Shown one piece after another: positions 1 to 8,687 of a stretch of 8,687 nt of DNA (position 1 is the first letter of the stretch; each line of letters opens with the position of its first letter). The stretch comes from Perkinsus olseni. Its lineage: Eukaryota. The notes below the pieces were generated by a model, which saw nothing but the letters and a program-made list of their open reading frames with translations, was not told where the DNA came from and ran no database searches. The translations under genes and the position numbers were made by a program. The stretch lies in contig JABANN010000953.1 in NCBI GenBank assembly GCA_013115125.1, forward strand, positions 1 to 8,687, read 5' to 3'.

Positions 1-790
1 AATAGATTATTAATATTATATATATATATTATGATATAGTTAGTATTATTTTATTAGATATCTCCATACCATACTGGTATTACTTTACCTATTAATAGTT
101 ATAATTAATAAATTGTTAGTATAGTATATATTTACCTTATAGGCTTAGATATTATTATATGGAGATAAAAGGGGATAATTATATCATTAATGGCATTTAT
201 TATATTATAACATATCCTATGGAGAGGGTCCTAAGGTGATATTATATCTATTTATATCCTATATCTTAATATATTATTTATCCCTATAGAATTACTTATT
301 AATATATAATAGTTTATTGATTACTAATAATATAATATAACTTAGGATTATTAATAGGCCTTATAAATCTATGTCTAATGGTTATATTGTATTAATTATA
401 ATAATATCCTTTATATCTTAATACAACACCATTAATATACTATATTATATATTAGAATAAGTTAATAGTGTATTTATTATCATATATATTATTAAGATAT
501 ACTCTATTATAATAAGTTAATATTAGTATATATTACTAACTAGATTATTATATATCTCCATGGTATATGAATATATTGATTTATATATATTAATTATATA
601 CTTAGTATTTATCACACTAGATTTACTATAAATATGTATATAATATAATTATAAATAGATAAACTTATAATAGTAAATAGTAATATTTATATAATAACAT
701 ATCAATATTAATAGTAATAAATAGATATACATAGTTATAATAATATAGATATTAATAGGAAGGAATATATAATAATTTAATATTATATTG

Positions 791-836
791 GTATTGGGGT
801 ATATTTTATAAATATATATTTAGTAAACTCCAATAC
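791..836. repeat. Inverted-repeat hairpin H1 (10 bp stem with one G-T pair, 26 nt spacer)
   Basis: GTATTGGGGT (791-800) / ACTCCAATAC (827-836). Confidence 0.75.
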
Positions 837-1214
837 AGGTATTTATTATGTTGACATAGTGTAATTTATTATCTTAGGTTAATTAAGATTATTAGTATAT
901 ATTATATTATCTAGTGAATATCAAATATTATATTAATGTAAACTATGGCATTATAAACCTAAGTATATAATATATTCCTATATATGCTAATATTATATTA
1001 ATATATATTAATTCCTAAGGTATGACTATCTCTATAGATTAATATTATATAAATGATAATATACTAGATATTCTAAATCTATATACTTTACTATAATATA
1101 TTATATAATAATATAAATTATGATATCATCATCTAATATTTAACTAGTAATATTATAATAATATCCTATATGATACTAATACCTATACTATATAGATTGA
1201 TAAATACTATTATT

Positions 1215-1259
1215 ATAGGGCCCTAGTAAATAGTAAATATATATAATAAAGGGCCCTAT
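1215..1259. repeat. Inverted-repeat hairpin H2 (10 bp perfect stem, 25 nt spacer)
   Basis: ATAGGGCCCT (1215-1224) / AGGGCCCTAT (1250-1259). The AGGGCCCT core is itself palindromic. The right arm overlaps TATCTCCAT (1257-1265). Confidence 0.9.
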
Positions 1260-1297
1260 CTCCATGATCATAGATCTATATTAATATATATATTTAT

Positions 1298-1340
1298 AGC
1301 ACCAGTAGTATATACTAATATTTTATAATTAACTGGTGCT
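1298..1340. repeat. Inverted-repeat hairpin H3 (9 bp perfect stem, 25 nt spacer)
   Basis: AGCACCAGT (1298-1306) / ACTGGTGCT (1332-1340), followed by GTTCTCCAT. Confidence 0.9.
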
Positions 1341-1547
1341 GTTCTCCATATAAAGGGATATTATACTGATTATAAATATACTATAAATACCCTCATGATG
1401 ATAATAATATACCTAGGATACTAATATATTGATAAATTTAGATATAGTGAATATAATATTGCATTGATATTAATAAGATAACATATAATAGTATACTAAA
1501 TACCATAGATTCACATGTTGTTAATATCGCATAGAGATAAAACATTA

Positions 1548-1610
1548 GTAATTGCATACTAATAAATAAATAATTAAATATATCAATAATAATATAATGT
1601 ATGCAATTAC
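1548..1610. repeat. Inverted-repeat hairpin H4 (12 bp perfect stem, 39 nt spacer)
   Basis: GTAATTGCATAC (1548-1559) / GTATGCAATTAC (1599-1610). Confidence 0.92.
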
Positions 1611-2161
1611 ATATATAAATCTATAGAGGTTAAAGGCTTATATAAATCTATATGGTATTACTATATAAATATAAGTACTATTAATATCTAGTTACCATTA
1701 AATTGATATATATATTATTAAATATAATTATTAGATATTATTAATATTACTATAAAACACCTACTATGTATTATATTATAAATATATATAAGATTATAGT
1801 AATTATAGATAGATTAATAATATACTAACTATATCTCCAGAGACTATTAATATCATTATATATAGATTTATACCATATAGTTATTATTATATTATATTAT
1901 CTTTAGTATATTAATCTATATAGTTATTATATATTATTATAATAGGATATATAGTATTTTATCTCTCTCTTTATTATAGTTATTAGTACATAGATAGGCT
2001 ATTTATAGTGATATTAATATAATTATTAGTATTATTTTATTCTATATTTCTATAGTTAATATATTATATAATAGTATATAAAGATATATTTTATAGATAT
2101 TTAATATGTTAATAATACTATGGCATATTAGTATATATATCTACATAATATTTATATTAAT

Positions 2162-2215
2162 ACCAGGGCATATTACTATATACTAATATATTATTTATGA
2201 TATTGATGCCCTGGT
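2162..2215. repeat. Inverted-repeat hairpin H5 (10 bp perfect stem, 34 nt spacer)
   Basis: ACCAGGGCAT (2162-2171) / ATGCCCTGGT (2206-2215). Confidence 0.92.
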
Positions 2216-2229
2216 TTACCTTTATATAA

Positions 2230-2291
2230 ATCACTGGCTAATACTAAATATATATATAATAGATTAATTAATAATATAACTAGCCAGTGAT
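2230..2291. repeat. Inverted-repeat hairpin H6 (11 bp perfect stem, 40 nt spacer)
   Basis: ATCACTGGCTA (2230-2240) / TAGCCAGTGAT (2281-2291). Confidence 0.92.
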
Positions 2292-3303
2292 AAAAGAGGG
2301 TATTATAACATATTATATTATATATTATTGATACGATATATATACTGGTATTTATAAATAGTAAATAAATATATACCAAACACTTATATAAATAATCATT
2401 ATATATATAGTATATTAATTTATAGTATTATTAGTACCCCATGGAGATAATATTAAATAAATCTAATTAAAGGTATTATATTTTATACTAAATAGATTAT
2501 AATATTAACTAGATATACCCTCTATCCTTATAAATTATTATAATTAAATATATTATTGGTATTAAGATAAAGAGTATCTATCATTATATATATATATATT
2601 TAGTAGTGAGATAAAAATAATAATTATGTGATGATATTAATAATGTTAATCTATAGTAAATTAATAATATATATTTAATAATTTATAATATAATAATATA
2701 TAAATCTATAATGTACTATAGGATATAATATAAATTTATTATAAATTTATCAGTAAATACCTTTATTTAGTATTAATACCCCATATATCACTAATATATA
2801 ATATAATATCTTATCTCTAATTAATAATATCATGTTAACCCCATGGCCATCTATTAATAATATGGAGATAAATAGTAATATTTTAATCTAGTGTGTTAAA
2901 AGGTAATTATCTATCTAGATGGTATAAATATATATATAAGATATTAATATTAATATAGATTACTAATTATTAAATATAGATATAATATACACTATAGATA
3001 GATTAATATATATTATATAATAATGAAATATTATACTACCTTATACCATGGAGATCTGTATCATCTAGTATTATAAATATATTATAATTAAATATTATTA
3101 CATTTACTATATATATATCTAGTATATATTAATCTAGTTAGTATTTATTAGTAATATAGAGTATAATAATAGTAATTATATAATAATATAAAGTATAAAT
3201 ATATTACCTTATATCCCATATACTAATTAGTAATATATAGACATTAATATATACCCATATTATAACCTAATCTATATTATTATATATTATTTATCCCATG
3301 GCG

Positions 3304-3354
3304 GCCATATAAAGGATAATTATATATATACTAACTATAAATAATAACTATGGC
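3304..3354. repeat. Possible degenerate hairpin (6 bp perfect plus a flanking G-T pair, 39 nt spacer)
   Basis: GCCATA (3304-3309) / TATGGC (3349-3354). The spacer length matches the family, but the stem is short. Confidence 0.4.
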
Positions 3355-4167
3355 TATGATTATAATATACCTATAGTTATACTTAATAATATATATATCA
3401 CTAGTGCCATGGTAAACTTATAATTATATTAATAAGATATAGTATATTAATCTATTGTATTATATTAAGTATAAATTAATAGTATCATAATGGATAGAGG
3501 GCCTATATATAATATCTAGATAGTGATATAAATACCTAATAATAGTTTATAATATAGTATTTAATATCTATTAGTTGCCCATATTATATATTCCAATACC
3601 ACACATTAGATAAAGATATTATAATATTGTATACTTGATATTGTTTATATTAGATTATGGGATATTATAATTATTAATAGTTATTAGATATATATATATA
3701 CCTATAGGCCTAAGATAATATATTATGAAATATCAATATAAATACACTATTAAATGTTATTATAATGTATCTCTCCATTCTATATTTATACTAACAATAA
3801 TATAATTACAATATATCTCCATAGATAATAAACCACATATACATCATATTATTAATAATAACAAATAAAGATATATTATATACACTCACTATTATTGATA
3901 TCTATTCATAAAGGGATAATATATATATATTCCTAAGGTATAATATAAGAATATAAGATATAATAATAGTATTAGTTAGATAAATAAAGGATAATAAATA
4001 TATACATATCATTATAATATAGATACCAGTATTTAATATAATTATATATATATAGTATTATAATGATTAGTACCATATCCTATAAATATGAATATATTAG
4101 ATATTATACTAAATTATGATCATATAGTTATTAATATTATATTAAATATATCATAATATATACTATA

Positions 4168-4225
4168 GCATGCACTAATATAAATAAGTTAATATACTAA
4201 ATAATATATAATTGATAGTGCATGC
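4168..4225. repeat. Inverted-repeat hairpin H7 (10 bp perfect stem, 38 nt spacer)
   Basis: GCATGCACTA (4168-4177) / TAGTGCATGC (4216-4225). Confidence 0.92.
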
Positions 4226-4532
4226 ATTAATATCTAATAGTATAACATGGAGTTAATAATATAATATTCATATATACCGTATCTATATATATTAGTTTAT
4301 AGTGTATAATTACATATATTATATAATAATATTAGATATATATAGTAATACATGATAGTAATTATAATGTTATTGTTAATCTATTAATATCAATGTAATA
4401 ATATTTATATTATGGAATGGCAATAGATTTATATATAACCAAGGCATTAATAATAATATATACCATAATGATGAATATAAACTATATAGAATAACCACTA
4501 TTAATTAATATAATATCATCTATAATATATAG

Positions 4533-4587
4533 GGCATTGTATTTATACTAATATTATATTTATTTATGGATATCTGTTAACAATGCC
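4533..4587. repeat. Inverted-repeat hairpin H8 (8 bp perfect stem, 39 nt spacer)
   Basis: GGCATTGT (4533-4540) / ACAATGCC (4580-4587). Confidence 0.8.
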
Positions 4588-4653
4588 GATTACTAATAAT
4601 GTATATATTATAATATAAAGTAAAGGTATATTTATAAATACTATATTATACTC

Positions 4654-4715
4654 TATGCCTGTACATTATTAATTAATTATTATTATATCAATATATATAT
4701 ATTAGTACAGGCATA
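4654..4715. repeat. Inverted-repeat hairpin H9 (11 bp perfect stem, 40 nt spacer)
   Basis: TATGCCTGTAC (4654-4664) / GTACAGGCATA (4705-4715). Confidence 0.92.
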
Positions 4716-5551
4716 CTATTATATGATATTAGATATTAATAAGATTATAAATATATAGTATTAATTCTATGGGTATAACTAATATTAAATCCAGAATAAT
4801 ATATTAATAATTTATAATCAATATTGTAGTATAATAACTAGTAATATTATATATATGCCTAGGAATAATATTATTAATATATATGGCTAAAGGTAAATAT
4901 ATTATAATAGATGTTTTGGACAATAAAATATAATTATAAAATAAATAATATTATATAGTGGGTATATGGATTATTAATAAAATAAGAATATATAATTTAA
5001 TAATATAGGATAATAAATATAGTAAGATTACTATAAATAATAGATATAATGTGATTAATACTATAATATCCTATTAATATATAGTTTATAATAATATATA
5101 ATTACCTATAGATATTAGATACTATTATGATAGAAATATACCCCAATAAGCATATAATAATATTTACTATGTATATCTAATACCAATGAATTATTATGAT
5201 ATCTTTATATATTAGATTATACATTATATGATATTATAGTAAGAGGTATTGTTTATTATTAATTTAATACAGTATCTTAGATATTATATTAGGATAATTT
5301 ATACTGGATTAATAGTTAATGATCACTGGTATATTATATAATATTTAATATATACCTAACTACATAGATTTCTAATAATTATATTATATTACATACACAT
5401 AGATATATAATAATATATTAGCCAGTGGTATTAATAAATAATATAATAATAAATAGTAAATAAAGGATTATAATTTAATACATACTTATAAATATATAGT
5501 AATATTTAATAATTAAAAGGCTGGTATTAATATGATATAAATCTATGTATA

Positions 5552-5591
5552 GGCACCCTTATAATTAATTATATATATACAATAGGGTGCC
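5552..5591. repeat. Inverted-repeat hairpin H10 (8 bp perfect stem, 24 nt spacer)
   Basis: GGCACCCT (5552-5559) / AGGGTGCC (5584-5591). Confidence 0.88.
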
Positions 5592-5641
5592 ATAATTATA
5601 ATATTACTAATAGACCTTTATGGATACCTAATGATATATTA

Positions 5642-5697
5642 TGTGTGCTGTATTAGTTATATTTATATTTTATTACATTATTTATTAACAGCACACA
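5642..5697. repeat. Inverted-repeat hairpin H11 (10 bp perfect stem, 36 nt spacer)
   Basis: TGTGTGCTGT (5642-5651) / ACAGCACACA (5688-5697). Confidence 0.92.
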
Positions 5698-6435
5698 ATA
5701 TTATTAAATATATATATCTAGATGGGTTAAAACCCTATAAATATTAATAGTCATAAAGGTATATAAATATATGTTAATTATAATAAAGAGATATAAATGT
5801 AGATATAATAAATATAGATATATAGTCAATAGTGTATTAAATACCTTATAAATATACGTATATAGGATATAATATTATATTTATATATAACCATACCATA
5901 TTATTAAATAAACTAGTATTATTAGTAGATATCCTATATATTTATACCAGGAACTAATATTATCTAACTATTAATCATTATATTATTATTAAATATATAT
6001 TTATATAGACTATCTATAGTATAAACTAGGATAATATCTCCATAAACATAGTGGGCTATAGTTATAAGTAGGTATATAAATCTATAATCTATCAATATAC
6101 AGTAATCTTAGTATATAGAGGGATATAATATTATATAGTCTATAATCTAAATATTCTATTTTAATTAAATAGTAATAATAGAGATATTATATTAATAAAT
6201 AATATTTGATAAAACATAACATAATAATATTATATTAGATTAATAGACTAATTATTATAATATACTTCATATATAGATATAATAATATAATAATGTAATA
6301 ATAATATAAAGAATACTACATAATAAAATAATATAAATGAATATAACATATTATACTTATAAATATCATACATATAATATATAATATATAATGGATAAAA
6401 GTTAATATTTGGTATATATTCATAAAGATTAATAA

Positions 6436-6498
6436 AGTGCTGGCTATACATAAATAAATATAAATTATATATATAAATATACTATAGCTGCCAGCACT
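6436..6498. repeat. Inverted-repeat hairpin H12 (9 bp perfect stem, 45 nt spacer)
   Basis: AGTGCTGGC (6436-6444) / GCCAGCACT (6490-6498). An alternative inner pairing GCTATA (6443-6448) / TATAGC (6483-6488) is also possible. Confidence 0.9.
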
Positions 6499-6703
6499 AA
6501 TAATATATAGAAGTAGTAATAGGTAAATTTCTATTAACATTGATATATAATATAATATAGTTTCAGTAATAACGGATATACTAATAATAAATATCTAATT
6601 GATATTAAATAAATATAATTATTATTAATTCCATTTAAATATATAATATATGGCCATAATAATGATCCATTAATATTTTATAGGAATATATATTATATAA
6701 TAA

Positions 6704-6763
6704 AAGGGCCTTTCTGTATCCTATATTATTAGATTATAATAATCTCCAGTGAATAAGGCCCTT
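6704..6763. repeat. Inverted-repeat hairpin H13 (9 bp perfect stem, 42 nt spacer)
   Basis: AAGGGCCTT (6704-6712) / AAGGCCCTT (6755-6763). Confidence 0.88.
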
Positions 6764-7195
6764 AAATATAATAAAAAGTAATAATATATAATGAAGTATA
6801 ATAAAATAAATATAAATATCATGTATAATAATTACCTATCGTTATAATATATTAATAACCCAATATTAAATATAAAAGCCTATAATTAGTTTATTAAAAT
6901 ATATATATTGTATTGGCAAGATAACATATAAATAGATATTATTATAAATATGAATAGGTATAAACCATGGTATTATATATTATATGGCCACTAGTATTTA
7001 TCTATAATTATAATTTACTAGTATTATCTATTTTATATGTATTAGTTCCTATATTATAATATATGGGTTATGGTAATATTAATAATAATATATATGATAT
7101 AATATAATAATTCCTATTAATTAATAATAGTATAATCGTTTATATATAATCTAAATAATATAATGTTATTACTAAATAAAGTAAATATGATATTA

Positions 7196-7245
7196 ACCCC
7201 AGCAATTAGTAACATGACTATTTAATATATATATTACGCTGGGGT
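7196..7245. repeat. Inverted-repeat hairpin H14 (8 bp perfect stem, 34 nt spacer)
   Basis: ACCCCAGC (7196-7203) / GCTGGGGT (7238-7245). Confidence 0.88.
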
Positions 7246-7549
7246 ATAGATATCCCTATTTATATTAAACTACATATAATAGTAAATATATATATATATC
7301 TATAATTATATACGCTTTATACCTATTAATTTTATATGATTTCCTAGTAATAGTTGATAAAATAATAATATGAAAATATAAATAATACATTAACCTCTAC
7401 CATATATCCATATAAATAATATTAAGATTAAAAGGATACTATAAATATTAAACCATAGAGATATATAAATATATAATTAGATATACCATGGCACCATATA
7501 TACCCAGCATTAACTATGGAGACTATATAATGATAGATATGGAGATAAA

Positions 7550-7607
7550 AGCCATTTCCTTACTATTTATTATACTATATATATTTATTATTATATTGGA
7601 AATGGCT
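7550..7607. repeat. Inverted-repeat hairpin H15 (10 bp perfect stem, 38 nt spacer)
   Basis: AGCCATTTCC (7550-7559) / GGAAATGGCT (7598-7607), immediately preceded by ATGGAGATAAA (7539-7549). Confidence 0.92.
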
Positions 7608-8118
7608 ATATTATCCTATATATTCTATTTCATTATTATTGTATATATATACTGGTTTATTATAATATTACTGATACTCTATATTAATAATATAAATAAT
7701 ATATATTAGATATTGTTATTACCAAACCTACTTGTAGATATAATATTCAGAATTATAATAATCTAATACAATTTAATATGGTTTTATAATATATAATCTA
7801 TACTTTCATAGTATAATGATATTTATTATTACATCTAGCTATATAATTATAGTAATATATATATCTTTGTTAATCTATTACATTATTGTATTAATATTAT
7901 ATATATATTATCACTATTTATATTAATATAAATAATAGGTGGTCATATATAATAAGATACAGTATTTATTATCTATTTATATTATTATCTTATAATATAT
8001 ATATATCCTATTAGTAGTACCAGATATTATTTAATTATTAATTTAATTATAATATTCATACTATCTATTTACCTTATTATAATAATATAATACATAGAAT
8101 ATATACAATAATAATATC

Positions 8119-8176
8119 TAGTGGGCATAATAATATAAAATAAACTAATAAATTATAAATAACTAAATGCCCACTA
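8119..8176. repeat. Inverted-repeat hairpin H16 (10 bp perfect stem, 38 nt spacer)
   Basis: TAGTGGGCAT (8119-8128) / ATGCCCACTA (8167-8176). Confidence 0.92.
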
Positions 8177-8687
8177 TAAGTATATAATAATATCTACTAT
8201 ATTTATATGTTAATTAAATGATAATTATATATCAATATTATGAATATGAATACAATATATTATTAAATACCTTATTAATGATCTTATAAATATATTTACC
8301 TTATATTATTAACTATATATATATATAACTAAATACTAATATATTGATATAATACCCTTATTTTTATCTAACTATAGATATATTTATATATAAAGTATTA
8401 ATATGGTCTTCTATGATAGTATATAATATAATATATATCAATAATTAATAATAATATAGAGATATAATAATAGGAATGTAAATAATATAATATATAGACT
8501 AGATATAATATCATAATAATAAATAAATATATAGTAACCCTTTAATACTTACCTATAATATATACCAGCCCTTAATAATATGTATAATCCTATATTTAAT
8601 ATATATTATCAATATATGGTATGGAGATATCTAATAAAATAATACTAACTATATCATAATATATATATATAATATTAATAATCTATT

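Follow-up and report, generated by a model that had tools for sequence, protein, structure and literature searches.

Strictly paired G/C-core hairpins in gene-free, AT-rich DNA: candidate priming sites on single strands

The vertebrate mitochondrial OriL is described as a stem-loop that forms when the DNA is single-stranded, its stem excluding single-strand binding protein and the polymerase priming from a T-stretch in the loop (PMC4256270). Yeast mitochondrial origins are presented as GC clusters separated by AT stretches together with a 9-nt promoter (PMC5569933), and the mtDNA of Candida albicans is reported to carry about 40 GC-rich palindromic hairpin elements between its genes, variable in both length and sequence, some being double hairpins with 40-60 nt of AT-rich DNA between and some lying beside promoters or at transcript ends (PMC4618339). 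Linear plasmid-like DNAs have been reported from Paramecium mitochondria in an account that names hairpin and dimer structures in a cited title, and by which these DNAs had no published sequence by 2011 (PMC3318907). The array described here consists of 16 hairpins with G/C-rich stems in very AT-rich DNA.

Gene content and composition of the window

The window, i.e. the whole 8,687-bp stretch of DNA analysed, has a GC content of 16.4% and carries a perfect 73-bp inverted repeat at its two ends.

1..73, + strand: terminal inverted repeat, left copy, with one ATCTCCAT inside at 60-67
8615..8687, - strand: terminal inverted repeat, right copy

The preliminary description had called this DNA gene-free, which is borne out: the longest ORF in the window is 74 aa, none of the stop-codon reassignments tried across it gives frames longer than shuffles, 3-base periodicity is absent, and searches of the window returned no tRNA (ARAGORN) and no Rfam match at E≤1. 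Relatives of the window DNA were sought across sequence collections and none was found. Sampled 31-mers of the whole window match 11 runs from 5 studies, two of which runs may be the source sample; 85-99% are present in independently assembled contigs of six of these runs (2 studies) and 23-33% in the remaining five. On this basis the DNA is real. That the hairpins arose in assembly or amplification, for example as chimeric inverted joins, is hardly credible given these independent contigs and given that each hairpin is short, lies inside the window and differs from the others, even if the terminal repeat could mark the stop of an assembler at a dispersed repeat.

The CpG odds ratio is 0.19 and that of CC/GG 2.5-2.9 in the window, a combination which we take to be a mitochondrial signature. 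The composition is organelle-like, its GC content matching the mutation-equilibrium GC near 17% and the intergenic GC of 16% given for mitochondria of Paramecium caudatum (PMC6505448). We infer that the window evolves like the spacer of a mitochondrion-type organelle, or like plasmid-like DNA, of presumably organellar origin. It also holds a 9-nt motif of consensus TATCTCCAT, conserved in the 9-mer only and not in its flanks, and ATCTCCAT is present on both strands in 11 exact copies where 0.28 would be expected.

60, 554 (554..561), 1258, 3815, 6036, + strand: copies of ATCTCCAT
159, 2441, 2862, 3048, 7539, 8621, - strand: copies of ATCTCCAT

The yeast promoter word occurs about as often as expected by chance (a single ATATAAGTA by eye, against an estimate of about 1.4).

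The hairpins, their stems and their loops

Sixteen inverted-repeat pairs had been noted earlier between 791 and 8176, 15 perfect and one with a G-T pair, and all were recovered at their positions. Over the whole window there are 15 perfect inverted repeats with 8-12-bp stems, 4-6 G/C pairs in each arm and 24-45 nt between the arms; when one mismatch is tolerated, 791-836 is the sole addition, for a total of 16, against a mean of 0.8 and a maximum of 4 in 40 order-3 Markov simulations. The elements are as follows, none being assigned to a strand.

791..836: hairpin 1, arms 791-800 and 827-836, nine Watson-Crick pairs and one G-T, loop 26 nt, z -2.85
1215..1259: hairpin 2, stem 10 bp, loop 25 nt, A-rich on +; its 3' end shares the first two bases of the ATCTCCAT copy at 1258-1265
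1298..1340: hairpin 3, stem 9 bp, loop 25 nt, z -4.46; the motif variant TTCTCCAT lies 1 nt downstream and the CTCCA core of this variant 3 nt downstream
1548..1610: hairpin 4, stem 12 bp, loop 39 nt, A-rich on +
2162..2215: hairpin 5, stem 10 bp, loop 34 nt, 14 nt from hairpin 6
2230..2291: hairpin 6, stem 11 bp, loop 40 nt
4168..4225: hairpin 7, stem 10 bp, loop 38 nt
4533..4587: hairpin 8, stem 8 bp, loop 39 nt, T-rich on +; weakest fold, z -1.62
4654..4715: hairpin 9, stem 11 bp, loop 40 nt
5552..5591: hairpin 10, stem 8 bp, loop 24 nt
5642..5697: hairpin 11, stem 10 bp, loop 36 nt, T-rich on +
6436..6498: hairpin 12, stem 9 bp, loop 45 nt, A-rich on +
6704..6763: hairpin 13, stem 9 bp, loop 42 nt with a CTCCAG motif variant and 10 G/C
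7196..7245: hairpin 14, stem 8 bp, loop 34 nt
7550..7607: hairpin 15, stem 10 bp, loop 38 nt, T-rich on +; the minus-strand ATCTCCAT copy 7539-7546 is 3 nt away
8119..8176: hairpin 16, stem 10 bp, loop 38 nt, A-rich on +, z -4.28

The preliminary description had asked for comparison with direct repeats and with randomised sequence, and its array withstands both. Under an 8-mer criterion, 14 inverted pairs are observed against simulated means of 0.04, 0.25, 0.40, 0.46, 0.64 and 1.16 for Markov orders 0-5 (300 simulations per order, largest count 7), and the same criterion yields one direct, no reversed and no complement-only pair. The stems in excess are GC-rich ones whose loops measure 20-49 nt (15 vs 0.31 expected), with no excess in other loop classes, and for GC-rich 5-mer inverted pairs enrichment is seen at gap 0 and between gaps of 20 and 59 but nowhere else. 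At this geometry, stems holding 0-3 G/C pairs show no enrichment (215 vs 248, 34 vs 43 and 7 vs 9.5); sequence generated under the Markov null may contain too much (TA)n, so that the depletion measured for AT stems with short loops may be due in part to the model. Folded as single-stranded DNA, all 16 elements form the named stem, with MFE values of -5.1 to -10.4 kcal/mol and z-scores of -1.6 to -4.5. The hairpins are far too numerous and too perfect for chance.

Sorted by mismatches, 15 elements are perfect, one has a single mismatch and none has two, where chance would give 0.13, 0.37 and 0.77, so that a tail of decayed copies is absent from these classes. Admitting G-T or A-C pairs gains only the element at 791, a G-T pair occurs at one of 155 stem positions, and pairing past the outermost G/C extends over only 1.0-1.1 A/T pairs, i.e. 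complementarity ends at the GC core. Each element is a G/C-rich core of 5-12 nt in strict Watson-Crick pairing with its own partner, which supports the earlier view of elements defined by structure and not by sequence. This strict pairing, with wobble pairs nearly absent, points to hairpins at the DNA level and not to RNA structures or decaying duplications. Taken with the lack of decayed copies and the end of complementarity at the GC core, it favours maintenance by selection or by intrastrand correction, and the short extension beyond G/C together with the lack of enrichment of G/C-poor stems argues against a copy tract. The arms, previously described as unique, are indeed all different, yet they share words of 6-9 nt (e.g. 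GGGCAT, TGGCTA and AGGGCC), and both arms of hairpin 6 have a degenerate second copy at 5321 and 5419, recurring with part of its loop within 5321-5431. Elsewhere, 5 near-copies of arms occur where 1.9-2.6 are expected, a non-significant difference that agrees with the earlier claim that no repeat family spread by copying is present.

The loops had been termed A/T spacers, which holds in so far as they are poorer in GC than the background (8.5% vs 15.5%; 0 of 5,000 random sets as low), but they are not pure A/T, with 48 G/C in 563 nt. Runs of at least three A or T number 33 in the loops, against 19.8 (P 0.001) or, in GC-matched windows, 24.3 (P 0.027), and A- or T-runs are missing from three of the 16 loops. 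Strand skew is 0.163 vs 0.098 (P 0.0007), and TAAA(A)TA is found near one arm in 12 of the 16 loops vs 5.9 expected, in motif and polarity tests that were devised only after inspection of the loops. The A-rich strand is + in some elements and the opposite strand in others. With its low GC, its runs and its skew, the polar loop is distinct from its surroundings and belongs to the unit.

Readings of the array

The hairpins are most likely DNA-level signals, for example start sites for the copying of single-stranded DNA. Our tentative reading is that they may act as OriL-like single-strand priming sites in DNA of putatively organellar type. The DNA would turn single-stranded through strand-displacement replication, or its A/T spacer would melt under supercoiling; the GC stem would close once the strand is single and hold the loop naked and single-stranded, and a T-run within the loop could be the start site for primer synthesis, as at the vertebrate mitochondrial OriL. 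Since A-rich loops occur on either strand, the array would prime both, and unique arms would block pairing and recombination between elements. Among the roles proposed earlier, priming or recombination of single-stranded DNA fits better, and RNA-processing signals and small hairpin RNA genes less well. About one priming hairpin per 500 bp of gene-free DNA brings no obvious host benefit, so that a selfish element fits at least as well. Selfish palindromic mini-elements, akin to the GC clusters that move within fungal mitochondrial DNA and to its double-hairpin elements, would rely on a mechanism that depends on structure to spread through AT-rich spacer or to persist there, and their arms would change fast while remaining paired. 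The variable, partly double hairpins described in C. albicans mtDNA (PMC4618339) offer a precedent, eight of the 16 hairpins here lie in pairs 14-66 nt apart, both arms and part of the loop of hairpin 6 recur, and the window holds no genes for the hairpins to serve; we nonetheless regard this reading as rather doubtful, as the arms form no family, a consistent target duplication is lacking (11 of the 16 elements are without an abutting repeat, and two have one of at least 5 nt), close pairs are not significantly in excess (gaps under 70 nt 4/15 vs about 2 by rough estimate), and the elements are alike in loop composition and not in their ends, the reverse of transposon-type elements.

A role in RNA seems similarly unlikely. 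The hairpins would be transcript 3' ends or processing sites and TATCTCCAT a phage-type (mitochondrial) promoter or a processing motif, arranged as terminator hairpin and then promoter as in yeast mitochondria, or under a mimivirus-like rule. The excess of ATCTCCAT on both strands and the conservation of the 9-mer alone, as in nonanucleotide mitochondrial promoters, are consistent with this, as is the position of the motif directly downstream of a hairpin on the motif's own strand (overlapping or within 3 nt) in three cases (1258, 1344 and 7546) against a rough expectation of about 0.2; in C. albicans, one transcription unit is described as ending at a GC-rich hairpin immediately ahead of the promoter that follows (PMC4618339). 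However, the window offers neither genes nor known RNAs for expression, almost no wobble pairs occur where C-to-T pressure would be expected to yield G-U, the loops are never short, unlike those of terminators, classical terminator-like sites number 1 vs 0.7 expected, and the distance from motif to next hairpin varies from 27 to 762 nt. It is improbable to a somewhat greater degree that the array is a functionless by-product of DNA metabolism, left by template-switch inverted duplications or by intrastrand correction that homogenised the arms of extruded hairpins, with paired G/C also shielded from the AT-biased mutation eroding the remaining DNA. Arm-to-arm correction would leave strictly Watson-Crick stems and a distribution of 'perfect or nothing', a loop G/C below background would fit deamination of single strands while they are exposed, and short GC palindromes are enriched (CCATGG 8 vs 0.39 expected; 12 of 14 SSWWSS hexamers palindromic; GGCC 11 times). 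Against it, pairing halts at the GC core and does not run into the flanks, stems of A/T alone show no enrichment at this geometry, the narrow range of loops at 24-45 nt with none of 1-19 nt needs an extra assumption, and fifteen pairs are not expected to pre-exist by chance for shielding to act on.

Comparison with known systems

In the AT-rich genome of mimivirus, the polyadenylation 'hairpin rule' involves unrelated palindromes recognised by their shape. Those hairpins come after genes, work at the RNA level and enclose short loops, whereas the present array has long loops, lies in gene-free DNA and shows almost no wobble. Integron attC sites are likewise structure-defined single-stranded hairpins of variable sequence, a few hundred bases apart; the window differs in having no cassette ORFs and no integrase, and its perfect stems lack the extrahelical bases that attC has. 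The hallmarks of attC had been noted as absent, and this stands, as cores (RYYYAAC/GTTRRRY-like) sought on both sides of the elements were found at 0 of 16. The likeness to dinoflagellate mitochondria is only an analogy. That to the linear mitochondrial DNAs of Paramecium is a lead only, drawn from their description and GC (PMC3318907, PMC6505448); the mitochondrial telomere repeat of P. caudatum given in PMC6505448 has an 8-mer and a 7-mer in common with two of the hairpin arms, a post hoc match, and the window contains no telomere repeats.

Yeast ori/rep and fungal GC elements resemble the array as GC islands amid very AT-rich DNA, and the hairpins here adjoin TATCTCCAT in 3 cases. The elements of fungi have greater length, genuine GC-richness and short loops, and most of them fall into sequence families; the present cores are of 5-12 nt, all different and with long loops, in a window with no mitochondrial gene. 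OriL occurs as one site per genome and has a loop of about 12 nt; here 16 elements lie in 8.7 kb on both strands, with loops two to four times as long, in a window without genes, and priming is a candidate role only. In OriL, as in the ssi and sso hairpins of plasmids and phages, a stem-loop of single-stranded DNA is required as a structure and its stem sequence is free. The features shared with OriL are the strict Watson-Crick GC-rich stems and the A/T loops with strand-pure A- or T-runs.

A discrete class of hairpins

Direct search of the window for perfect inverted repeats returned 15 pairs, whose 8-12-bp stems contain 4-6 G/C pairs and enclose gaps of 24-45 nt. Permitting one mismatch added only the element at 791-836 (hairpin 1, with one G-T pair), for a total of 16; 40 order-3 Markov simulations, likewise with one mismatch permitted, averaged 0.8. 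Under an 8-mer criterion, 14 inverted pairs were counted, where Markov simulations of orders 0 to 5 averaged between 0.04 and 1.16 depending on the order (300 simulations per order, largest single value 7), and control pairs under the same criterion numbered 1 direct, 0 reversed and 0 complement-only. A default repeat search is dominated by AT-rich imperfect pairs. The array of 16 hairpins within 791-8176, reported in a preliminary description that also proposed shuffled sequence and direct repeats as a check, was thus re-found far beyond chance. As single-stranded DNA, all 16 elements fold to the named stem (z -1.6 to -4.5).

When all perfect stems were classed by G/C content, length and loop size, the excess was limited to stems with at least 4 G/C pairs and loops of 20-49 nt (15 vs 0.31 expected). 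Stems with 0-3 G/C pairs at the same geometry are at or slightly under expectation (215 vs 248, 34 vs 43, 7 vs 9.5, 36 vs 44 and 11 vs 10, observed vs expected), and AT-rich stems with loops below 20 nt are depleted two- to eight-fold relative to the order-3 Markov model (55 vs 97, 37 vs 83 and 2 vs 18). This depletion corresponds either to avoidance of close palindromes or to a shortage of long (TA)n relative to the model, and may come in part from the null model making more (TA)n than real DNA. GC-rich 5-mers have more reverse-complement partners than expected where the two abut (gap 0; 25 vs 9.5) or lie 20-59 nt apart, with no excess at gaps of 1-19 or above 60 nt and none for direct partners. 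Because the excess sits only in GC-rich stems with 20-49-nt loops, the hairpins form a discrete class with fixed geometry and do not reflect a general inverted-repeat tendency.

No two elements have common arms, and the 6-9-nt words that arms share follow from the small G/C vocabulary of the whole window. A copy family of the MITE, REP or GC-cluster type was rejected, since all arms differ, no consensus emerges in the window and near-copies outside the hairpins, searched in the window with the 13 arms of at least 9 nt and at most one mismatch, are not in significant excess (5 vs 1.9-2.6 expected, P 0.055-0.15). Target-site duplication or a fixed target was likewise discarded: 11/16 elements lack an abutting direct repeat, and repeats of at least 5 nt flank 2/16, near chance for this composition. 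Core-like attC motifs (attC being the integron recombination site) stand on both sides in 0/16 elements, the window holding 4 RYYYAAC and 1 GTTRRRY in total, and neither an intI integrase nor cassette ORFs between hairpins were found by ORF scan and stop reassignments. The preliminary description had set the elements apart from such copy families and had seen no attC cores, and on both points these results agree with it. Intrinsic terminators, defined as a GC stem, a loop of 3-8 nt and a T-run, number one site vs 0.7 expected, and none of the 16 hairpins is of this kind. The four close hairpin pairs are not above chance. A degenerate copy of the 2230 element (hairpin 6, 2230-2291), comprising the two arms and some of the loop, lies at 5321-5431; its changes are non-compensating, and just 6 bp can pair across a 92-nt gap. 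This is one isolated example of a relative that has ceased to be a hairpin.

The DNA around the hairpins

The window contains 3750 A, 3514 T, 716 G and 707 C (8,687 bp; 16.4% GC), and its GC content is uniform lengthwise at 13-20% per 500 bp. Dinucleotide odds ratios over the whole window are 0.19 for CpG, 2.5-2.9 for CC/GG, 0.55-0.6 for AA/TT and 1.5 for TA. The signature is unusual, and runs of A and T are scarce, unlike most AT-rich nuclear DNA. Low CpG together with high CC/GG may be a mitochondrial signature; the composition of the window is mitochondrion-like in this sense, and no gene lies in it. The longest ORF in the window is 74 aa (table 11); under all single and double stop-codon reassignments, frames are no longer than in simulated or shuffled sequence, and G/C positions show no 3-base periodicity in the window. 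ARAGORN in standard mode called no tRNA in the window, and Rfam 15 covariance models on both strands gave no match at E<=1. Reduced mitochondrial tRNAs were considered and dismissed, the metazoan-mitochondrial mode of ARAGORN (-mt) yielding 6 low-grade or dubious calls that overlapped just 2/16 hairpins. The earlier claim of gene-free DNA is upheld by the short ORFs, the absence of tRNA and Rfam matches and the lack of any reassigned frame beyond shuffles. Tandem repeats are low-scoring AT-rich rows without true tandem arrays, and no dispersed repeats were found in the window besides a 73-bp terminal repeat.

The words and repeats that recur in the window are as follows.

Terminal repeat and recurrent short signals in the window.
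1-73 and 8615-8687: terminal repeat, each copy the exact reverse complement of the other, identity being lost abruptly at base 74
60, 159, 554, 1258, 2441, 2862, 3048, 3815, 6036, 7539, 8621 (both strands): exact copies of ATCTCCAT
1258, 1344 (variant), 7546: motif at most 3 nt from or overlapping a hairpin end, downstream on the motif's own strand
558, 2439, 2841, 3046, 3296, 3407, 6965, 7486: CCATGG

The word ATCTCCAT, the exact core of the 9-nt consensus TATCTCCAT, occurs in 11 copies vs 0.28 expected, once in each terminal repeat. The flanks of these copies are not conserved and fail to align; an origin as terminal-repeat remnants was therefore rejected, and the word is a short signal in its own right. 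TATCTCCAT looks like a promoter- or protein-binding-type signal. CCATGG is present 8 times vs 0.39 expected; five of the eight fall in 2292-4167, the hairpin-free 1.9-kb stretch. Short GC palindromes are enriched: of the 14 SSWWSS hexamers present, 12 are palindromic, and there are 11 GGCC sites. A loose word, (A)TAAAGG(G)ATA, recurs, for example at 168, 1352, 3311, 3910 and 3986, and AAAGG has 16 plus-strand and 6 minus-strand occurrences. Sigma-70-like sites (163 vs 138 ± 10) are uninformative at this composition.

Megablast and blastn of the window against plasmid and phage collections gave no match at either sensitivity. A 20-mer of the terminal repeat had no match in viral or prokaryote-genome contigs and one in metagenome contigs (L001, 1-6293); this contig was set aside as an unrelated one of ordinary composition, by eye mostly minus-strand coding, and the match as due to chance. 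A GC-rich 21-mer was absent from prokaryote-genome and viral contigs, two hairpin-arm patterns with the loops left free were absent from viral contigs, and literature searches on the 9-nt motif and on GC-stem/AT-loop hairpins found nothing specific.

Pairing, loops and rival explanations

Among elements with loops below 50 nt, 15 are perfect, one has one mismatch and none has two, where chance would give 0.13, 0.37 and 0.77, respectively, so that there is no decay series. Under an RNA-level constraint, G-U pairs should accumulate with the C-to-T pressure implied by 16% GC; permitting G-T (plus-strand RNA) or A-C (minus-strand RNA) added the 791 element alone. Complementarity stops with a G/C core of 5-12 nt, mostly 7-8 nt, and pairing beyond it amounts to 1.0-1.1 A/T pairs per side, about chance level; as complementarity ends at the core, the arms are not the remains of longer inverted duplications.

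The loops are themselves distinct. Their GC content is 8.5% (48/563 nt) vs 15.5% in the background and 16.3% in 30-nt flanks, and 0/5,000 random sets of background windows were as GC-poor. Runs of A or T of at least 3 nt number 33 vs 19.8 ± 3.8 (P 0.001) or, in GC-matched windows, 24.3 (P 0.027); they occur in 13/16 loops and are strand-pure in 12 of these 13, being short (3-4 nt) and common in this DNA. Loop strand skew is 0.163 vs a background of 0.098 ± 0.018. TAAA(A)TA is present in 12/16 loops vs 5.9 ± 1.9 expected, a lead from a test devised after the loops had been seen, and its first copy in the A-rich orientation has a mean distance of 5.75 nt to the 5' arm vs 13.9 nt in background windows (also post hoc). 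The loop is part of the hairpin unit. Together, the missing decay series, scarce wobble, core-limited pairing and distinct loops point to DNA hairpins, formed in single strands or as cruciforms, in which selection or arm-to-arm correction maintains the pairing; both RNA structures and neutral relics are disfavoured.

Our preferred, though tentative, reading is that the hairpins are single-strand initiation sites of the type of OriL, the vertebrate mitochondrial origin of light-strand replication. The stem would be stable and free in sequence, with pairing by DNA rules, and the loop would remain unpaired, with T-runs on the template strand; as A-rich and T-rich loops are mixed along the window, both strands would be served. 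OriL logic fits in that a free-sequence stable stem and DNA-rule pairing are what is seen, and the short runs in the loops may serve as the T-stretch. Its weak points are the long loops, three loops without runs and so many sites in a stretch with no gene to serve.

The same features bear on other explanations. Selfish palindromic mini-elements would suit the gene-free setting and have a fungal precedent in Candida albicans mtDNA, where about 40 GC hairpins of variable length and sequence are described (passages of PMC4618339), in some cases double and in others next to a promoter or at the end of a transcript; such elements seem unlikely here, given the lack of a family consensus and of target duplication. 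Terminator or processing hairpins acting in RNA and coupled to a TATCTCCAT promoter could account for the three hairpin-motif adjacencies, but this is a doubtful reading of elements that lack wobble pairs, have long loops and are accompanied by no genes, in a window where classical terminator-like sites are at chance level. Perfect pairing and the surplus of short palindromes would both be explained if template switching and intrastrand correction had produced the hairpins as a by-product without function; such an origin is nevertheless rather improbable, as it does not account for the end of pairing at the GC core, for the lack of enrichment of AT-only stems or for the confinement of loops to 24-45 nt.

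That the hairpins could be an assembly artefact is extremely improbable, in that independent runs contain window DNA. Sampled words from the window are present in contigs of 11 public runs from 5 studies, 6 of the 11 containing 85-99% of the words (2 of these 6 may be the source) and 5 containing 23-33%; ten runs have one organism label and the eleventh another, and none is listed as RNA, although one may be. As contigs of 11 runs from 5 studies contain its words, the window DNA is real and recurrent. These runs are small (13-104 million letters), which may point to a high-copy molecule.

The molecule and its comparison with known systems

The terminal repeat may mark the true end of a linear replicon, or it may be an inverted repeat that is dispersed and halted the assembly. 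The window could be a complete protein-less linear organellar replicon, that is, a gene-free mitochondrial plasmid-like or satellite DNA of a kind seen on gels in Paramecium mitochondria and never sequenced, which we consider improbable. Such a replicon would persist by cis-acting DNA shapes alone, namely the 73-bp terminal repeat, the 9-nt TATCTCCAT and the hairpin array, and its unique self-pairing hairpin origins would recruit the host replication machinery on both strands.

The passages of PMC3318907 that bear on this record linear mitochondrial plasmids in three Paramecium species, none sequenced by 2011, and cite a title that names hairpin and dimer structures. For P. caudatum mitochondria, the relevant part of PMC6505448 gives a mutation-equilibrium GC content near 17% and an intergenic GC content of 16%, close to the 16.4% of the window. 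According to the portion of PMC3118789 concerned, the main mitochondrial genome of P. caudatum is 94% coding, which leaves room for 8.7 kb without genes only on an additional molecule. Two hairpin arms contain words that the P. caudatum mitochondrial telomere repeat, as given in PMC6505448, contains too:

2208-2215: arm of hairpin 5 (2162-2215), containing the 8-mer GCCCTGGT
7236-7242: arm of hairpin 14 (7196-7245), containing the 7-mer ACGCTGG

In shuffles, either word would turn up about 0.01 times, and the search for them was post hoc; telomere repeats are absent from the window, and the match may be a coincidence. A Paramecium mitochondrial origin of the window DNA, argued from these likenesses, is a lead and not a result.

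Homology searches overlook DNA signals that are defined by shape and not by sequence, so such signals are hard to find. With 16 of them lying side by side in gene-free DNA, the constraints on shape are directly readable: the GC core measures 5-12 nt, pairing is strictly Watson-Crick, and the 24-45-nt loop is purged of G/C and has a polarity. If they are priming sites, they would constitute a natural array of OriL-like origins and a simple substrate for the study of start-site choice by organellar polymerases; an autonomous non-coding replicon would reveal how little DNA needs to persist in an organelle; and if they are merely self-correcting palindromes, they show how pairing can protect G/C where mutation towards AT is extreme.

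The hairpin array is real and statistically solid, and is now better defined than in the preliminary description; it is not without precedent, being a variant of DNA signals already known to be defined by shape. Fungal mitochondrial GC hairpins have short loops and often come as two neighbouring hairpins of conserved sequence, whereas loops here are 24-45 nt and never 1-19 nt, and the sequences are not conserved. Yeast mitochondrial origins consist, in the description taken from PMC5569933, of GC clusters split by AT stretches and a 9-nt promoter, to which the pairs of hairpin and TATCTCCAT in the window are similar. At OriL, as set out in the section of PMC4256270 on its mechanism, the displaced strand folds into a stem-loop whose stem excludes single-strand binding protein, and RNA polymerase begins the primer at a short run of T in the loop, handing over to DNA polymerase after about 25 nt. 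A stable ssDNA stem-loop with a stem of free sequence, one of the traits of OriL-type sites, is found in 16/16 elements of the window, with strictly Watson-Crick pairing.
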